This document shows positions 3,448-52,038 of a stretch of DNA of 64,000 bases, piece by piece. The position numbers were made by a program, and so were the translations under genes. The notes beneath the pieces are model-generated. The model was not told the DNA's origin and searched no databases. It worked only from the letters and a program-made list of their open reading frames with translations. Position 1 is the first letter of the stretch. Each line of letters opens with the position of its first letter. Source of the DNA: a virus (lineage: Duplodnaviria; Caudoviricetes); IMG/VR virus record IMGVR_UViG_3300036770_003093, positions 32,001 through 96,000 of that record; one strand, given 5' to 3'.

Positions 3448-6400
3448 CGAGATGAGTATTGAAGCTTTTCATTAAACGATCTTAGAATCATGTTTACATT
3501 TCCAGAAACACGTCTTCTAAAAAGTACATAGTTAAGATAGTGTCTAAACTTCTTACGCTGAGTTTGAAGTTTATTATAGTTTAGATTGTTTGGATTCAAA
3601 TCTTTTAAATAACCATTTGGTTGTGTGTTCCAAATTTGCCTTTGAGCAATAGGGTTAAACTCGCCGCGATCATCCGTGATATCCCAGAACTGATTAAAAC
3701 GAATTTTCTGTTCTTCTTTAGCATAAAGAATATCTATGCTGCCGGGGTTAATAATTGGATATGCAAGGTTTGCTATACCGTTATTCTTAGACTGCAGATT
3801 TAAGCGTAACAAACCAGAAGTTTGTTCTGTATTCCAGATCACTGCCTCATCAAAGTTGTAGTCTAAAATCTGAAAATCATCAGTACAGTTATTAAGATTT
3901 CTTGCAACAAAGGATTCTACAGTATATTCAACACTACGCATTGTAAATACTTGTTGTCCTGTTGCTACCGGGATCTCAATTTCAAAAGGATAGTCTACAC
4001 CATAATAGTTACAGTATTGCGCGCAGGTATTGTTGTGTCGCCATATACCAGATCCTTTAATACTAGAGAAGTGATTTTTTGAAGGTAATAATAGATCAGG
4101 TTTCCAATCATGGAAACTTATCCACATCTCATTTTTAAGGTCATAACTAATTGTCCATGATGCATCTTCAAAGTAGTTAAAGAATGCCTGATCACCGATC
4201 TTTACACGGATTACTCTATCAACAACAAACTCGTTAGTAGACGCATCATATAAAACTCGTTTGGTTCCTTTGTATTGATCCTTTAGATAGAAATCTTTCT
4301 TGGTAATATAAAGTATGGTGTCTACGTTTTCGTAGATTGTTTGCATACCAATACCGGCCACAGGGTTATCAATTAGTTTGAAGTTTGGAAAGTCTTTTAG
4401 CAATTCATATTGCATGTATTTAAAGAACCACCATTTCAAACCTGATAGAGATATCTCTTTTAGTTGACCGGTATACTGATATACTTTACCTTGATTTTGA
4501 CTAGTCCAAAACAATCCACCAGGGGTACTTATTACAGAACGTATGTCTTGACAAGACGCATACTCAAATGAGTTCTCAGCATTTACAATTCTTTGTTCCG
4601 CTTGAGAAAATAGTGCACCGTCGCCTAAAGTAACCTTTGTACCAAGATCAGTTTTAAGTTCATCTACACCTTGAAATATTACCGGGCTAGCATCTCTAAA
4701 GAAAAAGATTGCGCCATTTTTACTAATACTCTTGATCCCAGTAATATAGTTACGATAATCTTTATAGTTATTAGCTAAATAGATTCTCCAGCTATCTCTT
4801 ATCTGCTCATCTTGCTGAGGTAGTGAATACAATATCCGGTATGGAAAATATTGATAACAAAGTTGTGATACCTGCGGATCATAATTACGAGCTTGTAATT
4901 CACCCCAGGATATAAAGTTGTTGAATAACCTACTTATACTAAAAGACTCATCGTATGCATAGAAGTTATCAAACGGTATAACATTTGGGTTTGCGTTGAA
5001 CATGGTTTCCAGATCATTGAAACCATATGGATCATAGAACTTGTCTTTATCTTCTAAACCTTGTTCTCTAAACTCAGATAAGCGTTCTGTCTCAACAAAG
5101 AAATCTCTTACACCAGAATTGAATAGATAAAAGCAAGCATCAACATTATCAAAAACATTATTCTCATTATCTAAGTCATAAAAGTCTTCAGGCAGAATAC
5201 CACTACCTGATGATGGACTTGGCAAACTACCTGTTAAAATAGAGTTCATCGCTGAATTTACAGCTCCAGATAAAGTAAACTGTTTACTATTAACCCAAAA
5301 TCTAGGTTTTGTCAACATCCTATATGTATAGTAGTTGTATTCAAACCCATCAGGTTGACCATACAACCAATCATTAAAATAAAAGAATGTTGTCTTTTCA
5401 GTGTATCTCTGTATGTATGTGTCTCCACCAAAATATAAACATTGCGGCGCCGTAGTGCTATTAAGATTTAAACCAGAAGGTATAACTCTCTTAGTATAAG
5501 TTTTACCATTAACAGTAAAGCTAGATTGTATAAGAGTAGAGAAATCAATTTTCTGTTCGCAGTCTGTAATAGGAATTTGTTTAATACTATCTAGCTGACC
5601 ATACTGATTTTGTATTCTTACTTTAATACCACCATACCATGATGAGATATTTCTTTCAAACTCTTGTCTTGGATCTGAATAACTTGCTGGTTTAGCTAAA
5701 CTGTCATCTAGATTTGGTGGTAATAATAAGATTGTACTCTGATTATTAAGTGTAGTTTTTATACCAACAAAAGTATTTCGCTTAATATTATTGATTTTAA
5801 AATCCTCATCAAAAGTTATAAGCCCCGGTCTAATATATGCGTTTCTATCAATTTCTCTAGTTATGTTGTTAATAATTGGTCTTGCAGAATTTGAATAAAA
5901 ACCGTGGGCAATACTTTGAAGCGCATATTGAGCAAAAGGTGTAAATGCATAAATAGCACGCATTGCTGTTTCAGCACCTTCTGTAAAGAAATTAATAAAA
6001 TTAAAAAAAGGAAATAACGCATCAACAGCACCTAATGGAAGACCGTCATATGGTGTAGACTCATAAGTTTCTCTATACTCACCTGTTAAAAAACCTGGTA
6101 GAGTTTTTGCAAAACTATCATCTGCTGCTTGTGTTGCTTGCGATGTTGATGATTGACCACCAGGAAGTGCCGCTTGGCCTATTGCCGAAATACTACTTGC
6201 TGAAGTGCTACCTGCTGTAGATTGAAACGCGCTTGTAACATGTGCTCCTGGAATTGGAAAAAATGGAAAAAATGTTCCAGGAAGAGTTGTACCATTTAAT
6301 GTAGGTGGAAAAGCTATATTAAGACCCCTTGGTGAAGAATAACTTCTTTGCTTTTTACCATTAAGTTTAATGATACCATAAGCGGCACCTGCTATTACAG

Positions 6401-45928: not shown

Positions 45929-46489
45929 AATTTTTCTTTAAGGTTGATAAACCTTGACAAGCATGTGGGGCAACGACACCATTCTATCTATTACTGCAAG
46001 TAAAATAGATAGTATCAAACACTTTTGCAGAGTGTAATGGTATCATATGAGATATAATCTCTATGATTTAGCGTTTGTGCAGACTTAAAAATCATGCAGT
46101 TATAAGCAACTTGATATGTTGTGGAAGTTACATAACTTTAAAAGCAAAATGCTTATCTCTATCTCAAAAAAGTCACAGAGGTAGATGCTTAATGGTTTGT
46201 GACGAACCATAAAAATTTGGGAGTATATGCGTTAAGCCACATGATGCAGACTGGTAATCTGTTGAATCCCATTTATATGACAACTAACAACCGACAGGGG
46301 GGTAAATACTCACCTTGTAAGTGATCTACCAAAGATTGCGAGTCCTCAACAAGCTGTTAAATCAGCCAACATTCTTTTTTAGTAGTTATTTTTTCTTATA
46401 TGGGATAAAGCATAGAAAAAAATCTACACCTCTTGAAGGTTACCAAAGAGTATAAATAAATGGTAGCTCAAACTCAAAAACTTATTATT

Positions 46490-48984: not shown

Positions 48985-49101
48985 TTCCACGGCGGGTCTC
49001 CCACAACGTTTCCTAATTCCATCCCAACTCGGGGGGCCCGCCAAACTTATAGGTGGTAGTAAGTATACCTTTATAAACTTACAAACATTTATCTCAATTT
49101 T

Positions 49102-49326
49102 ATGTCACAATCCTTAAACGAAGCTCTAAACATCTCAGACGAAAGAGCAGATGAGCTTGCAAAAACATCTGTAGAAATCCTTAGAGCAAATGAAACGCTT
49201 GACCAGGCGTTAACAAGTTTGTATTCTGGAATTACAGGCAAAGAAGATCTTACTACAGAAGAAAAAGAAGCGATCTTCTCAATTTATGCCTTGGGACACT
49301 ATTTGTCCTCTTTTCGTCAATCCTAA
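49102..49326 (+). CDS. Hypothetical protein
   Basis: LNEALNIS start, similar to the next ORF (VNEALNIP). Confidence 0.6.
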   Translation: MSQSLNEALNISDERADELAKTSVEILRANETLDQALTSLYSGITGKEDLTTEEKEAIFSIYALGHYLSSFRQS

Positions 49327-49361
49327 ATCATTTAATCAATTAACCACTAAATCCATTTTTT

Positions 49362-49655
49362 ATGAACGTAAATGAAGCTTTAAACATTCCACAAAATTTG
49401 TGGGACCAAGATGACGAATTTGTAAACAAAGTTATCAAAGAGGATGATTCAACAGTAGCAAGCTGTCTTGAAAGTTCTGGAAATCACGTTAAAAGTGATG
49501 AGTTTAATATTAACGGTATTGAACTCTCATTGTATGAACGTAGACTTCTAGCAATTGGCTACATGGTAGGTTGCGAAATCATGAAATATAGGGTTCAAAA
49601 TGACCCAAGAGTCATGATGGACATGATTCGATCATTCAAAAAAATGTTTGACTAA
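49362..49655 (+). CDS. Hypothetical protein, probable paralog of the previous gene
   Basis: Shared NEALNI start and E-x(6)-Y-x-x-G helix. Confidence 0.6.
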   Translation: MNVNEALNIPQNLWDQDDEFVNKVIKEDDSTVASCLESSGNHVKSDEFNINGIELSLYERRLLAIGYMVGCEIMKYRVQNDPRVMMDMIRSFKKMFD

Positions 49656-49671
49656 ACTATCTTTGAACCAT

Positions 49672-49698
49672 GGGCGGGGAAACTAATCCCCGCCCTTT
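49672..49698 (+). terminator. Intrinsic terminator
   Basis: GGGCGGGGA/TCCCCGCCC plus TTT. Confidence 0.7.
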
Positions 49699-49712
49699 AT
49701 ACACAATCAATC

Positions 49713-50120
49713 ATGAAAAATCTATTATTTCTCTTATTACTGTTTATAGGAAGCGCTGCAAACGCTCAAAACATGATCTACATAGATCACACTTACGATG
49801 CAATGAAAGAAGCCCTAACAGAAGATGGGAACTACATTGACAAAGAAGAAGACTATAAAGGTCAAGTTGTAGTTACTATATTCTCTCATGAGCACCCGGA
49901 AAGAGTTGGTCTGTTGTTTTACAAAAATGGCGAATGTGTAACAAACGCTATCTTTTATAACGATATGCCTAAGTTTAACGCTGCAATCGAAGATTACAAC
50001 AAACATTTCGTAGTTTTAAGCAATAAATCGTGGAGAGTTTATGCAAAAGGTAATTCTTACCACGCATCTATAGAAACTACGAGTAAAAACAAGTTTTATA
50101 TTCTCTGGACTAGAGAGTAG
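49713..50120 (+). CDS. Secreted/periplasmic hypothetical protein
   Basis: Sec signal MKNLLFLLLLFIGSAANA-Q (Gln at +1, typical of Bacteroidota). Confidence 0.7.
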   Translation: MKNLLFLLLLFIGSAANAQNMIYIDHTYDAMKEALTEDGNYIDKEEDYKGQVVVTIFSHEHPERVGLLFYKNGECVTNAIFYNDMPKFNAAIEDYNKHFVVLSNKSWRVYAKGNSYHASIETTSKNKFYILWTRE

Positions 50121-50128
50121 ATAAACAT

Positions 50129-50251
50129 AGTCAGGTGGCGGAATGGTACGCAAAGATATAGGCTGTGGAAAATAACTTGTTATACAGCCAGCAATAAGCG
50201 ATGGATTGGTTATCCAGTATCTTTATACAGGTTCGAGTCCTGTTCCTGACA
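50129..50251 (+). ncRNA. tRNA-like RNA 1 lacking a canonical anticodon loop
   Basis: Acceptor GTCAGG/CCTGAC; D arm GCG-GAATGGTA-CGC; T arm ACAGG-TTCGAGT-CCTGT; branched insert in place of the anticodon loop. Confidence 0.7.
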
Positions 50252-50311
50252 AATCAATTCAGGTCTTGGTATTGCCCTGAAATTTTGTATATTTGTAGAA
50301 ATATAAATACT

Positions 50312-50692
50312 ATGAAACAACAGGGTGATACCGCTGAATTGAGATTTATGCTATTGAACCATGAGTTAGGATATATCGTGTCTAAACCATTTGGTGATAA
50401 TGCAAAGTACGATTTAATTGTAGATACAGGAGATAATCTTGAAAGAATACAAGTTAAATCAACAAGAAGAAAAGAAAATTCTTCAGGAATGGATTGTTAC
50501 AATTGCCTTGTTTGTTCAGGTGCTGATTCAAAACAACAGTACTTAGAAAAAGATGTGGATTATATAGCAATTTATGTTATACCTGAAAATGTTTGGTATA
50601 AAATACCACTAAAAGAAATTAAGGGTAAGACAGTAAAACTGTATCCTCATAGGAAATCTCAAAGAAACACCTATGAAAAATATAGAATATAA
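50312..50692 (+). CDS. PD-(D/E)XK homing endonuclease (group I intron-associated, I-Ssp6803I-like family), free-standing
   Basis: QGDTAE...SKPFGDNAKYDLIVD...RIQVKS...VDYIAIY; start MKQQG after TATATTTG. Confidence 0.85.
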   Translation: MKQQGDTAELRFMLLNHELGYIVSKPFGDNAKYDLIVDTGDNLERIQVKSTRRKENSSGMDCYNCLVCSGADSKQQYLEKDVDYIAIYVIPENVWYKIPLKEIKGKTVKLYPHRKSQRNTYEKYRI

Positions 50693-50721
50693 TCCTGTCC
50701 TGACTACTAAATATTAAAACG

Positions 50722-50925
50722 ATGATAACAATTTCAATATTATTAATTCTACTATACTCATACAGTATATATAAAATTAGAAAGGACTCTGGATCTTGGA
50801 AAGATTTTGATTTCTATGAGAGTAATATATTTGTTTATCTTATATTCTTATTTGGTACAGCAACAATTGTCTTAAGCATAATATCTCTTATGATTTATGC
50901 GGTAAATAATAATATTGTACCTTAA
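50722..50925 (+). CDS. Small membrane protein
   Basis: Two hydrophobic segments. Confidence 0.55.
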   Translation: MITISILLILLYSYSIYKIRKDSGSWKDFDFYESNIFVYLIFLFGTATIVLSIISLMIYAVNNNIVP

Positions 50926-50935
50926 ATAATAATAT

Positions 50936-51034
50936 AGTCAGGTGGCAGAATTGGTAACAGTTCCTGGGCTATTAAGGATGCTGGAAACGGTAGATAGAGA
51001 GATTCTTAATGCGGGTTCGATTCCCGCCCTGGCT
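50936..51034 (+). ncRNA. tRNA-like RNA 2 lacking a canonical anticodon arm
   Basis: Acceptor AGTCAGG/CCTGGCT; TGGCAGAATTGGTAA D-loop; T arm GCGGG-TTCGATT-CCCGC; ATTAAGGAT/ATTCTTAAT helix. Confidence 0.7.
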
Positions 51035-51049
51035 CCTAATTTAAAACAA

Positions 51050-51187
51050 ATGGAAGAATTAGATAAAAAGTTTCAAGAATTAGGTTGGAGAGACACAACC
51101 GAGGCATATTATGGATTGGATTTTACTCCTTTCATGAGTATCATTATAGAACACATTTCAGAAATCTCTAAAAAACAAGAACTATGA
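51050..51187 (+). CDS. Hypothetical protein, 45 aa
   Basis: Start MEELDKK after the tRNA-like RNA; coupled to the next gene. Confidence 0.5.
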   Translation: MEELDKKFQELGWRDTTEAYYGLDFTPFMSIIIEHISEISKKQEL

Positions 51188-51543
51188 AAGGATTAATCTT
51201 ATTTAAGCTCATATCTGCTATGATAATGGTAGAGAGTGGTGGTAACCCTAATGCATTTAACCCTAAAGAAGATGCCGCAGGTGTACTACAAATCAGGCCA
51301 ATTATGGTCGCTGAACTTAACAGATTAGGAATAGAGTTTAGTCTTGATGACAGATACTCTAAAACAAAATCTGTAGAAGCATTTGAGAAATGGGTTGAAA
51401 TCAAGAACTATACTAATCCAGAGGTAATTGCTAGAAAATGGAATGGTGGTCCTAGTGGCCACCTTAAACCTACTACTCTTAACTACTGGAGAAAGGTTAG
51501 TAATTTGATGTACCCCAAATTTTATAAATGTGACCTCAGATGA
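51184..51543 (+). CDS. Lysozyme-fold protein (lytic transglycosylase/destabilase-like)
   Basis: MVESGGNPNA...AAGVLQI...ARKWNGG. Confidence 0.75.
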   Translation: MKGLILFKLISAMIMVESGGNPNAFNPKEDAAGVLQIRPIMVAELNRLGIEFSLDDRYSKTKSVEAFEKWVEIKNYTNPEVIARKWNGGPSGHLKPTTLNYWRKVSNLMYPKFYKCDLR

Positions 51544-51968
51544 AGATTCCACAAACACCTAAAGATTTTGTAAAAGACATCTTAGAACTTTTGGAAAGAA
51601 ACACATATCAAGGCTTTGAAAAAGAGTATTTGTATGCAATGTACCTAGAGCTTGTTAGTAAGGAAAAGTTTCCGCAGCCTAAATTTAAAGTTGGTGAATA
51701 TGTATATGTTCATACAAAAAACTTAGGCTACGGTTACAGCGAAGAAAATTCTCAAAAGAAAGATCTTATATTCTTCATTGACAACGCTCCTTATGTGATG
51801 GGTATAATCACAGACTTTTCTATTTATAATAGAAGATCTTATGAGGTTAAAACCTATTTTGCTGATAACCGTGATCCTGAAAAAGAATCTGATATAAAAA
51901 GGTTTACTGAAAGCGAACTCATAAAAATGTCAGAATACTGTAAGAATCCCTTGTTAGAAAAAGATTGA
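51540..51968 (+). CDS. Hypothetical protein (KOW/SH3-like)
   Basis: KFKVGEYV...FTESELI. Confidence 0.55.
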   Translation: MKIPQTPKDFVKDILELLERNTYQGFEKEYLYAMYLELVSKEKFPQPKFKVGEYVYVHTKNLGYGYSEENSQKKDLIFFIDNAPYVMGIITDFSIYNRRSYEVKTYFADNRDPEKESDIKRFTESELIKMSEYCKNPLLEKD

Positions 51969-52038
51969 CAGAGAGGTAGATTGTTTATATATGGGGAGGT
52001 GAGAAGTCTCCCCATTTATAAATTTTATTTATTTAACT

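Follow-up and report, generated by a model that had tools for sequence, protein, structure and literature searches.

What is a homing endonuclease gene doing in the T loop of a transfer RNA (tRNA)-like RNA gene, with a spare copy of that gene's 3′ end directly behind its stop codon? The question arises in a 64,000-nucleotide (nt) stretch of viral DNA (the window), bases 32001-96000 of the 118,243-bp virus record IMGVR_UViG_3300036770_003093 (G+C 35.6%), where the initial annotation, made from the letters alone, described an intron-less endonuclease inserted into a tRNA-like RNA (RNA 1) whose 3′ end it rebuilds. Our analysis indicates that positions 50244-50690 probably form a minimal, intron-free mobile cassette that occupies the conserved 3′ end of a tRNA-Leu-like RNA gene in a phage and is spread by nuclease homing; the cleavage, repair, immunity and expression that belong to this account are predictions from sequence. 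Coordinates of the individual features are collected in Table 1.

RNA 1 opens with 7 nt of acceptor 5′ strand and a class II-type D arm; a 61-nt two-hairpin insert then takes the place of the anticodon loop, and a T arm and a 3′ strand lengthened by one base follow. Its predicted fold is cloverleaf-like, with a 6-bp acceptor and a one-base bulge (z -3.3; equalled by 0 of 200 shuffles). The Rfam tRNA score lies below the gathering score of 29 and ARAGORN makes no call, so RNA 1 falls outside the definition of a tRNA, which includes a 7-nt anticodon loop. The T loop reads TTCGAGT (50232-38; TTCG, 50232-50235), the upstream copy of the 3′ end is AGTCCTGTTCCTGAC (50236-50250), and the downstream copy, AATCCTGTCCTGACTAC (50691-50707), overlaps the TAA stop codon of the nuclease gene (50690-50692). 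This downstream copy, hereafter the orphan, consists of the last three T-loop bases, the T-stem 3′ strand, the acceptor 3′ strand and AC. On re-reading the sequence we found every coordinate of the initial annotation to be correct, and the join it proposed holds: with TTCG followed by the orphan, a T stem of 5 bp sits directly on a perfect 7-bp acceptor, in which AGTCAGG (50129-35) pairs with CCTGACT. The joined RNA is predicted to fold at -40.0 kcal/mol, with an additional T-A pair contributed by the base just before.

The 5′ motif common to RNA 1 and its neighbor RNA 2, spaced 800 nt apart, occurs in at least 120 viral contigs, bringing to light a very large family of tRNA-Leu-like RNAs in phages, their ends fixed and their core hypervariable. 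The fixed 5′ part comprises the AGTCAGG acceptor strand and a tRNA-Leu-type D arm; the fixed 3′ part comprises the T arm ACAGG/TTCGAAT/CCTGT, then the CCTGACT acceptor strand and AC. The middle is free in sequence and length, the distance from 5′ motif to T loop being mostly 40-140 nt, with single genes at up to about 250 nt; a few still larger distances include a neighboring copy. Counted over this genome and 128 viral loci, the core CCTGTCCTGAC follows a T loop in 136 instances and lacks a normal one in 24. Because the orphan is identical to the family's standard end, the empty site reconstructed by the join is the family's normal state. A chance repeat was considered and rejected, since the orphan is the standard 3′ end seen these 136 times; the 16-mer copy has one match in the window, an exact one, and in a shuffle control allowing up to 3 mismatches 0.34 matches were expected, with at least one match in 28 of 100 shuffles. 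The T arm and acceptor of RNA 2 (GCGGG/CCCGC, CCTGGCT) are unlike the standard end, and Rfam holds no family for these RNAs beyond weak tRNA matches. Some family members carry hairpins inserted in the D loop (loci L119 and L029), and up to five copies lie within 5 kb (L010).

Empty alleles, which the initial annotation had proposed to look for, are present in metagenome contigs. Contigs of four public runs were placed on 49700-51200 at 85% likeness or more, and one of them, record 25 of run X5 (263 nt), matches 50123-50243 with 5 differences in 121 nt and so spans all of RNA 1, even its unique middle. The X5 loose-end consensus at 50243, which from the tables we take to belong to record 25, continues with CCTGACTAC and then unrelated sequence; this is the standard end, with neither the extra T nor a nuclease gene. 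Runs X2 (records 15 and 17) and X10 contain the same empty form. Record 6 of X10 lies on 50693-50836, in the window's downstream flank, and in three X10 contigs beginning at 50693, CAGGTTCGAG stands in front; record 6 is probably among them.

These alleles shift one of the two junctions. The insertion had been placed in the T loop at 50236, and the right junction does lie in the T loop, but because the empty alleles show host-type sequence to 50243, the first insert-specific base on the left is the T at 50244. The T-loop G at 50237 is RNA 1's own. The A that the orphan has there is dictated by the stop codon, to which the base belongs, and this implies that the orphan travels with the cassette. 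Together the flanks rebuild the family's conserved standard end, the putative target.

A perfect T arm and acceptor would also arise if 50236-50690 were spliced out and TTCG joined to AATCC, in the manner of a tRNA group I intron or of the group I introns on record in the T loop of transfer-messenger RNA (tmRNA), as described in the available text of PMC11915505. Such splicing is very improbable here. No group I or group II intron family was detected at the Rfam gathering score in the window or at E ≤ 10 in 49900-51200, in line with the earlier claim that no intron is present, and none was found at E ≤ 0.1 in seven related loci. The insert contains only 76 nt of non-coding sequence, and splicing would be unneeded, since the upstream copy already completes the RNA.

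The mobility of the insert is seen in the distribution of nuclease relatives. Relatives were drawn from viral contigs (8 and 21 loci) and from metagenome contigs (the best 80 of 291 matches), and those with at least 67% identity fill a table of 26 rows in which some contigs are counted twice (L183 = L123, L186 = L124). An upstream T loop is found in 15 of the 26 rows, followed in 15 of 15 by the one-base-longer version of the end. Downstream sequence is visible in 25 rows; A(A/G)TCCTGTCCTGAC stands directly after the stop in 16 of these, and the other nine have the same end with changes (5), a stump-like element (3) or none (1, L127). The host genes differ: in ten of them the spacing from 5′ motif to T loop is 48, 75, 82, 93, 100, 119, 127, 146, 153 and 153 nt, the middles of the host RNAs are unrelated, and one host is a tRNA-Thr(UGU) accepted by ARAGORN (L124). 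In a BLAST comparison of 49000-52000 with all loci, unrelated nuclease-bearing contigs (L176-L179, L121) match 50225/6-50707 only, 483 bp at 93-96% identity, and a multiple alignment gives the same limits. The likeness of the leader to that of L121 extends over 62 nt, though the host RNAs differ. The proposed mobile unit is thus borne out as one and the same 483 bp in unrelated host RNAs, with homology ending at 50225/6 and 50707. In L180/L181, the nuclease gene lacks an upstream tRNA-like gene, and a stump-like element rather than a bare orphan follows the stop.

Phages and genomic islands use tRNA 3′ ends as attachment sites, which leaves a rebuilt gene on one side and a displaced partial copy on the other. 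The same direct-repeat geometry is seen here, with the rebuilt 3′ end on the left and the displaced copy on the right, and an integrative element set in place by a site-specific recombinase would account for it. We regard this as even less credible than splicing. The 455-nt insert encodes a 126-amino-acid nuclease alone and no integrase, and its two repeats differ by an insertion, whereas the cores of attachment sites are identical.

That insertion, a single base, is tightly linked to the nuclease. We compared 209 non-redundant family ends within 2 edits of the standard 11-mer, counting as nuclease-adjacent those with the gene at most 700 nt downstream. Ends of 12 nt make up 23 of the 24 nuclease-adjacent cases versus 6 of the 185 others (Fisher 4e-24). 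One of these six, L288, is a nuclease locus missed by the motif, and two lie less than 300 nt from a contig end; the lone exception among the 24 is a standard, unoccupied gene 311 nt upstream of an occupied one (L184, 249-332 and 537-641). The base is inserted at differing places, giving CCTGTTCCTGAC, CCTTGTCCTGAC, CCTGTCCATGAC, CCTGTTCCTGGC and CCTGTCCTCGAC, and in a maximum-likelihood tree of the nucleases the type of variant follows the clades. The window, L176, L177 and L179, for example, form a clade (support 98/96) that shares CCTGTTCCTGACA despite different hosts. As had been supposed, then, the variant 3′ end travels with the nuclease gene, and because variant type follows nuclease clades across hosts, the replacement end belongs to the mobile unit. 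A complete standard site is absent from five of five nuclease-bearing virus records (15-40 kb each) and from this genome; in those records, exact matches to the motif are confined to orphans and a single copy whose T loop is altered, and G005 has none, even in its orphan.

Why an extra base, and not a substitution? A substitution that spoils the DNA site would have to be matched in the 5′ strands, outside the cassette, whereas one inserted base would shift the DNA register at the cost of no more than a bulge in the RNA. The insertion would, in addition, interrupt a 16-nt direct repeat able to delete the cassette. Two non-nuclease open reading frames (ORFs), in L060 and L062, are bounded by a standard end and an orphan, and their upstream copy lacks the extra base, which favors immunity over repeat stability as the reason for it.

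A second nuclease family shows the same layout. ORFs of the Pfam family HNH_3 in L030 (5204-5735) and L068 end in the same orphan, with the stop codon TAA overlapping AATCC as in the PD-(D/E)XK_5 cassette studied here. Among 58 HNH_3 relatives, 18 have a T loop 113-125 nt upstream, followed in 17 by an end one base longer. The exact orphan lies within 25 nt of the stop in 17 relatives, all among the 34 closest (at least 59% identity), and a further nine of these 34 have, by eye, an orphan with one to three changes. Two unrelated nuclease families thus converge on one short site. The upstream end of the HNH_3 cassettes (L030, L068, L269-L302) is mostly CCTGTCCTCGAC or CCTGTCCTCGGC, and their leader of about 115 nt contains a hairpin.

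We propose the following mechanism for the PD-(D/E)XK_5 cassette. In genes without the cassette, the nuclease would cut the standard end, made up of T arm and acceptor strand. The break would be repaired from an occupied copy, with the T arm as left arm and the 17-nt orphan as right arm, so that the cassette is copied in. The replacement would still pair with the unaltered 5′ strands at the price of a one-base bulge, leaving the host RNA with a usable 3′ end, and the extra base would shift the DNA site so that the occupied gene is not cut again. The statistical link of the extra base to the nuclease is strong; that the base confers immunity we infer. As the site is short, cleavage of the standard and the one-base-longer end could easily be compared in an assay.

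The gene is an ORF of its own outside any intron or intein, present in some relatives and absent from others, which is what defines a free-standing homing gene. The locus also has the composition of a mobile ORF: a nuclease ORF, a diverged replacement end on the host gene and a native-type end displaced downstream. The encoded protein matches PF11645 over residues 2-118 with 81.6 bits against a cut-off of 26.1 (E 7.2e-23), its sole Pfam match, and is similar to PDB 2OST (E 1.1e-6), which we take to be I-Ssp6803I (entry title 'putative endonuclease'). The earlier assignment to the I-Ssp6803I family is thereby supported. The D...QVKS core is aligned, YDL...QVKS is invariant in eight relatives, and the residues of the D...(Q/E)xK core that we assume to be catalytic lie within it. 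The fold is not GIY-YIG, which places the nuclease outside the Seg family itself, and the group I intron home that is a feature of I-Ssp6803I-like enzymes is absent. All 19 of the 19 coding sequences compared are open, with a median dN/dS of 0.122 and a maximum of 0.452 over 168 pairs, indicating that the gene is under strong purifying selection. One X10 contig skips the last 83 nt of the nuclease gene (50607-50691) and joins directly to the orphan; it looks like a decaying nuclease copy.

A promoter had been proposed at TATATTTG in the leader, and this found no support: TAnnTTTG is not enriched genome-wide (74 and 89 sites versus about 71 expected), and the motif is absent from a second type of cassette leader. 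TAGAAAT is no recurrent upstream motif either, and a scan for sigma-70-type promoters stayed at background, with TTGGTA-16-TATATT matching at 9 of 12 positions and 14 such sites in the region versus 8.4 ± 3.1 in shuffles. The second leader type (119-126 nt; L123, L124, L188-L190) has a hairpin CCTGTCA...TGACAGG and a 3′-end-like piece, CTGTCCTGATT; in L190, a deletion joins the host T-stem strand to the hairpin of this leader.

Several observations weigh against homing as the origin of the locus. Searches for RNA 1 orthologues with an exact 30-mer in viral contigs and a 22-mer in metagenome contigs returned none, and an exact-pattern scan with the L124 tRNA-Thr found only its own contig. Contigs of the RNA run X15 lie only on 49753-50145 and 50903-50935. 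The empty alleles are short metagenome contigs known from tables without full sequence, and they speak to existence, not frequency. The closest relative genome (L150/L152), which matches 49000-50144 and 51008-51996 and nothing between, has no empty RNA 1 but a 29-nt stump and different ORFs. The right homology arm would be only 17 nt long, repair running from arms of 12-17 nt, and in L184 a standard site stands beside a nuclease gene on one DNA. Finally, orphans and stumps also flank non-nuclease ORFs (L060, L062, L150), which implies general recombination at the conserved ends without an adjacent nuclease gene.

Such recombination is the basis of a different account, in which the nuclease is a passenger: the tRNA-like ends would be general recombination joints that shuffle neighboring ORFs, the nuclease would have its target elsewhere or no homing role, and the extra base would be kept because it interrupts the 16-nt direct repeat and so prevents loss of the gene. 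The flanked non-nuclease ORFs and the L184 arrangement fit this account, as do the presence or absence of the ORF at 50722-50925 between RNA 1 and RNA 2 and the position of distant nuclease relatives (31-48% identity) between protein genes with no tRNA nearby. We nevertheless consider it unlikely. The extra base is specific to nuclease genes and absent at two likewise-flanked non-nuclease ORFs, two unrelated nuclease families share the layout, the cassette and not its neighbors recurs at 93-96% identity in different hosts, and selection on the nuclease gene is strong.

The stump of the closest relative consists of the 5′ acceptor and the start of the D stem fused to the standard 3′ end. In that genome, an ORF follows the stump; after it lie a further stump, a further ORF and a gene resembling RNA 2 whose T arm is damaged. 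Because this relative does without RNA 1, having only the 29-nt stump at its position, the suggestion that the cassette implies a functional RNA is weak. Stumps of 29-30 nt, fused at GAAT, flank small ORFs in this genome (L150, 2918-2946 and 3266-3296) and are also seen in L052 and L062; joints from 50145/6 to 50691 in X5 and X10 have the same form. The ORF between RNA 1 and RNA 2 encodes 67 amino acids, is membrane-like and is missing in relatives, and X5 and X10 contain joints from 50711 to 50928 and from 50719 to 50927/50931.

Table 1. Features of the occupied RNA 1 locus and its neighbor, in window positions.
Feature	Position	Strand	Evidence
RNA 1, tRNA-Leu-like RNA as it stands	50129-50251	+	Rfam tRNA 23.4 bits; fold -38.0 kcal/mol
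T arm (ACAGG / TTCGAGT / CCTGT), host-derived, presumed left homology arm	50227-50243	+	Empty contigs of X5, X2 and X10 match to 50243
Extra T (50244) and replacement acceptor 3′ strand (CCTGAC, then A), cassette-borne	50244-50251	+	Variant type tracks nuclease tree
Cassette leader: hairpin TTCAGG (50258-63)/CCTGAA (50276-81), then TATATTTG (50288-95)	50252-50311	+	97% identical to L121
Free-standing homing endonuclease gene, 126 amino acids, PD-(D/E)XK_5	50312-50692	+	Pfam PF11645
Orphan standard 3′ end, presumed right homology arm	50691-50707	+	Identical to family standard end
RNA 2, neighboring tRNA-like RNA, unoccupied	50936-51035	+	Rfam tRNA 30.3 bits

The standard acceptor stem is not confined to tRNA-Leu-like RNAs. 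True-looking tRNAs recognized by ARAGORN (Thr UGU, Lys UUU, Ile GAU and Lys CUU; L124 2833-2904, L055, L007) share the AGTCAGG/CCTGACT acceptor stem, which suggests that tRNA ends evolve in concert in these phages. Homing traffic may partly explain why the ends of the family are so uniform. Taking these threads together, we speculate, with more doubt than conviction, that the identical ends found on hundreds of tRNA-Leu-like phage RNAs, and on some true tRNAs of phages, could serve as a landing pad for at least two unrelated nuclease families; that a one-base bulge spoils the DNA site yet still pairs with the host 5′ strand; and that cutting and repair keep the family's ends uniform across phages, shuffle neighboring ORFs and leave 29-nt stumps and orphan tails as scars.

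The virus record contains genes for the large terminase subunit, the portal protein and the major head protein, which identify a tailed phage. ARAGORN finds 0 tRNA genes in the whole 118,243-bp genome, and BLAST of 49000-52000 against deposited phage records gave no match. The standard 26-mer occurs in 13 contigs of metagenome-assembled genomes (MAGs; L256-L268), six of them labeled Bacteroidota, Chitinophagia, Chitinophagaceae, Sediminibacterium or Bacteroidia; the remaining contigs, with scattered labels, are probably phage contigs binned by mistake. No Shine-Dalgarno sequence precedes the nuclease ORF, and this and the MAG labels are hints of a Bacteroidota host, no more. Elsewhere in the window, a Hatchet ribozyme (RF02678) with a long insert in its variable stem lies at 45934-46097 on the + strand (66.4 bits versus a gathering score of 51), and the related nuclease-bearing contig L124 has a Pistol ribozyme at 676-735. 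A tRNA cluster with a nuclease relative (L125/L126; positions 4113-4188 and 1982-2043) includes an ARAGORN tRNA with a four-base anticodon (ttaa) and a freshwater-1 RNA (RF02979, 85 bits).

The home of I-Ssp6803I is a group I intron in a tRNA-fMet gene. Our nuclease resembles this enzyme in its Pfam family, in direct sequence similarity and in a tRNA-gene target, here presumed; it differs in having no intron, in being encoded by a phage rather than a cyanobacterial gene, and in a presumed target made up of the T arm and acceptor end rather than the anticodon region. According to the available text of PMC3384342, I-Ssp6803I reads a 23-bp pseudo-palindrome as a tetramer, and the T-arm DNA here is near-palindromic like that target. 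Invasion of the I-TevII endonuclease gene offers a parallel in that the flanks of the ORF, read together, resemble the target site, although in the part of PMC3984707 available the ORF lies inside a self-splicing intron, unlike here. In tmRNA, the T loop of the tRNA-like domain is likewise a homing site, sometimes with an endonuclease gene; the cases described in the accessible sections of PMC11915505 are true introns with LAGLIDADG genes, whereas no intron is present at our locus.

Closer in setting is SegB of phage T4, described in the available text of PMC2330249 as a free-standing GIY-YIG nuclease in a tRNA cluster. The same text gives it a 27-bp recognition site that includes the T-arm motif GGTTCRANTCC, cleavage at tRNA-gene 3′ ends, and spread together with flanking DNA during mixed infection; in the portion of PMC13096335 available, SegB drives rearrangements at tRNA genes. 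Like SegB, our cassette is a free-standing nuclease gene among phage tRNA genes, and the end of the SegB ORF abuts the next tRNA. The nuclease here is PD-(D/E)XK rather than GIY-YIG, and SegB lies between intact tRNA genes; the accessible parts of these sources describe no replacement 3′ end or orphan for SegB, and T4 retains cleavable sites in its own genome. A preprint on bacterial tRNA mimics deals, in its available part, with families other than the phage tRNA-Leu-like one, and our full-text searches turned up no account of this layout in phage tRNA or tRNA-like genes.

The layout itself has its nearest counterpart in the mobile ORFs of fungal mitochondria (Allomyces atp6; Glomus atp6, atp9, cox2 and nad3), in which, according to the text of PMC3630166 available, a nuclease ORF comes with a foreign replacement C terminus and the native one lies downstream. 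Both systems have a nuclease ORF in the 3′ part of a gene, a diverged replacement end and a native end left unused downstream. The fungal elements occupy protein-coding hosts in mitochondria and rely, as far as that text goes, on synonymous changes; here the host is a phage RNA gene, in which a one-base insertion is tolerable as a bulge. An RNA gene cannot use silent codon changes, and the one-base bulge appears to serve in their stead. What emerges is a known strategy, a nuclease that brings its own spare gene end to mitochondrial protein genes, applied to an RNA gene of a freshwater phage.

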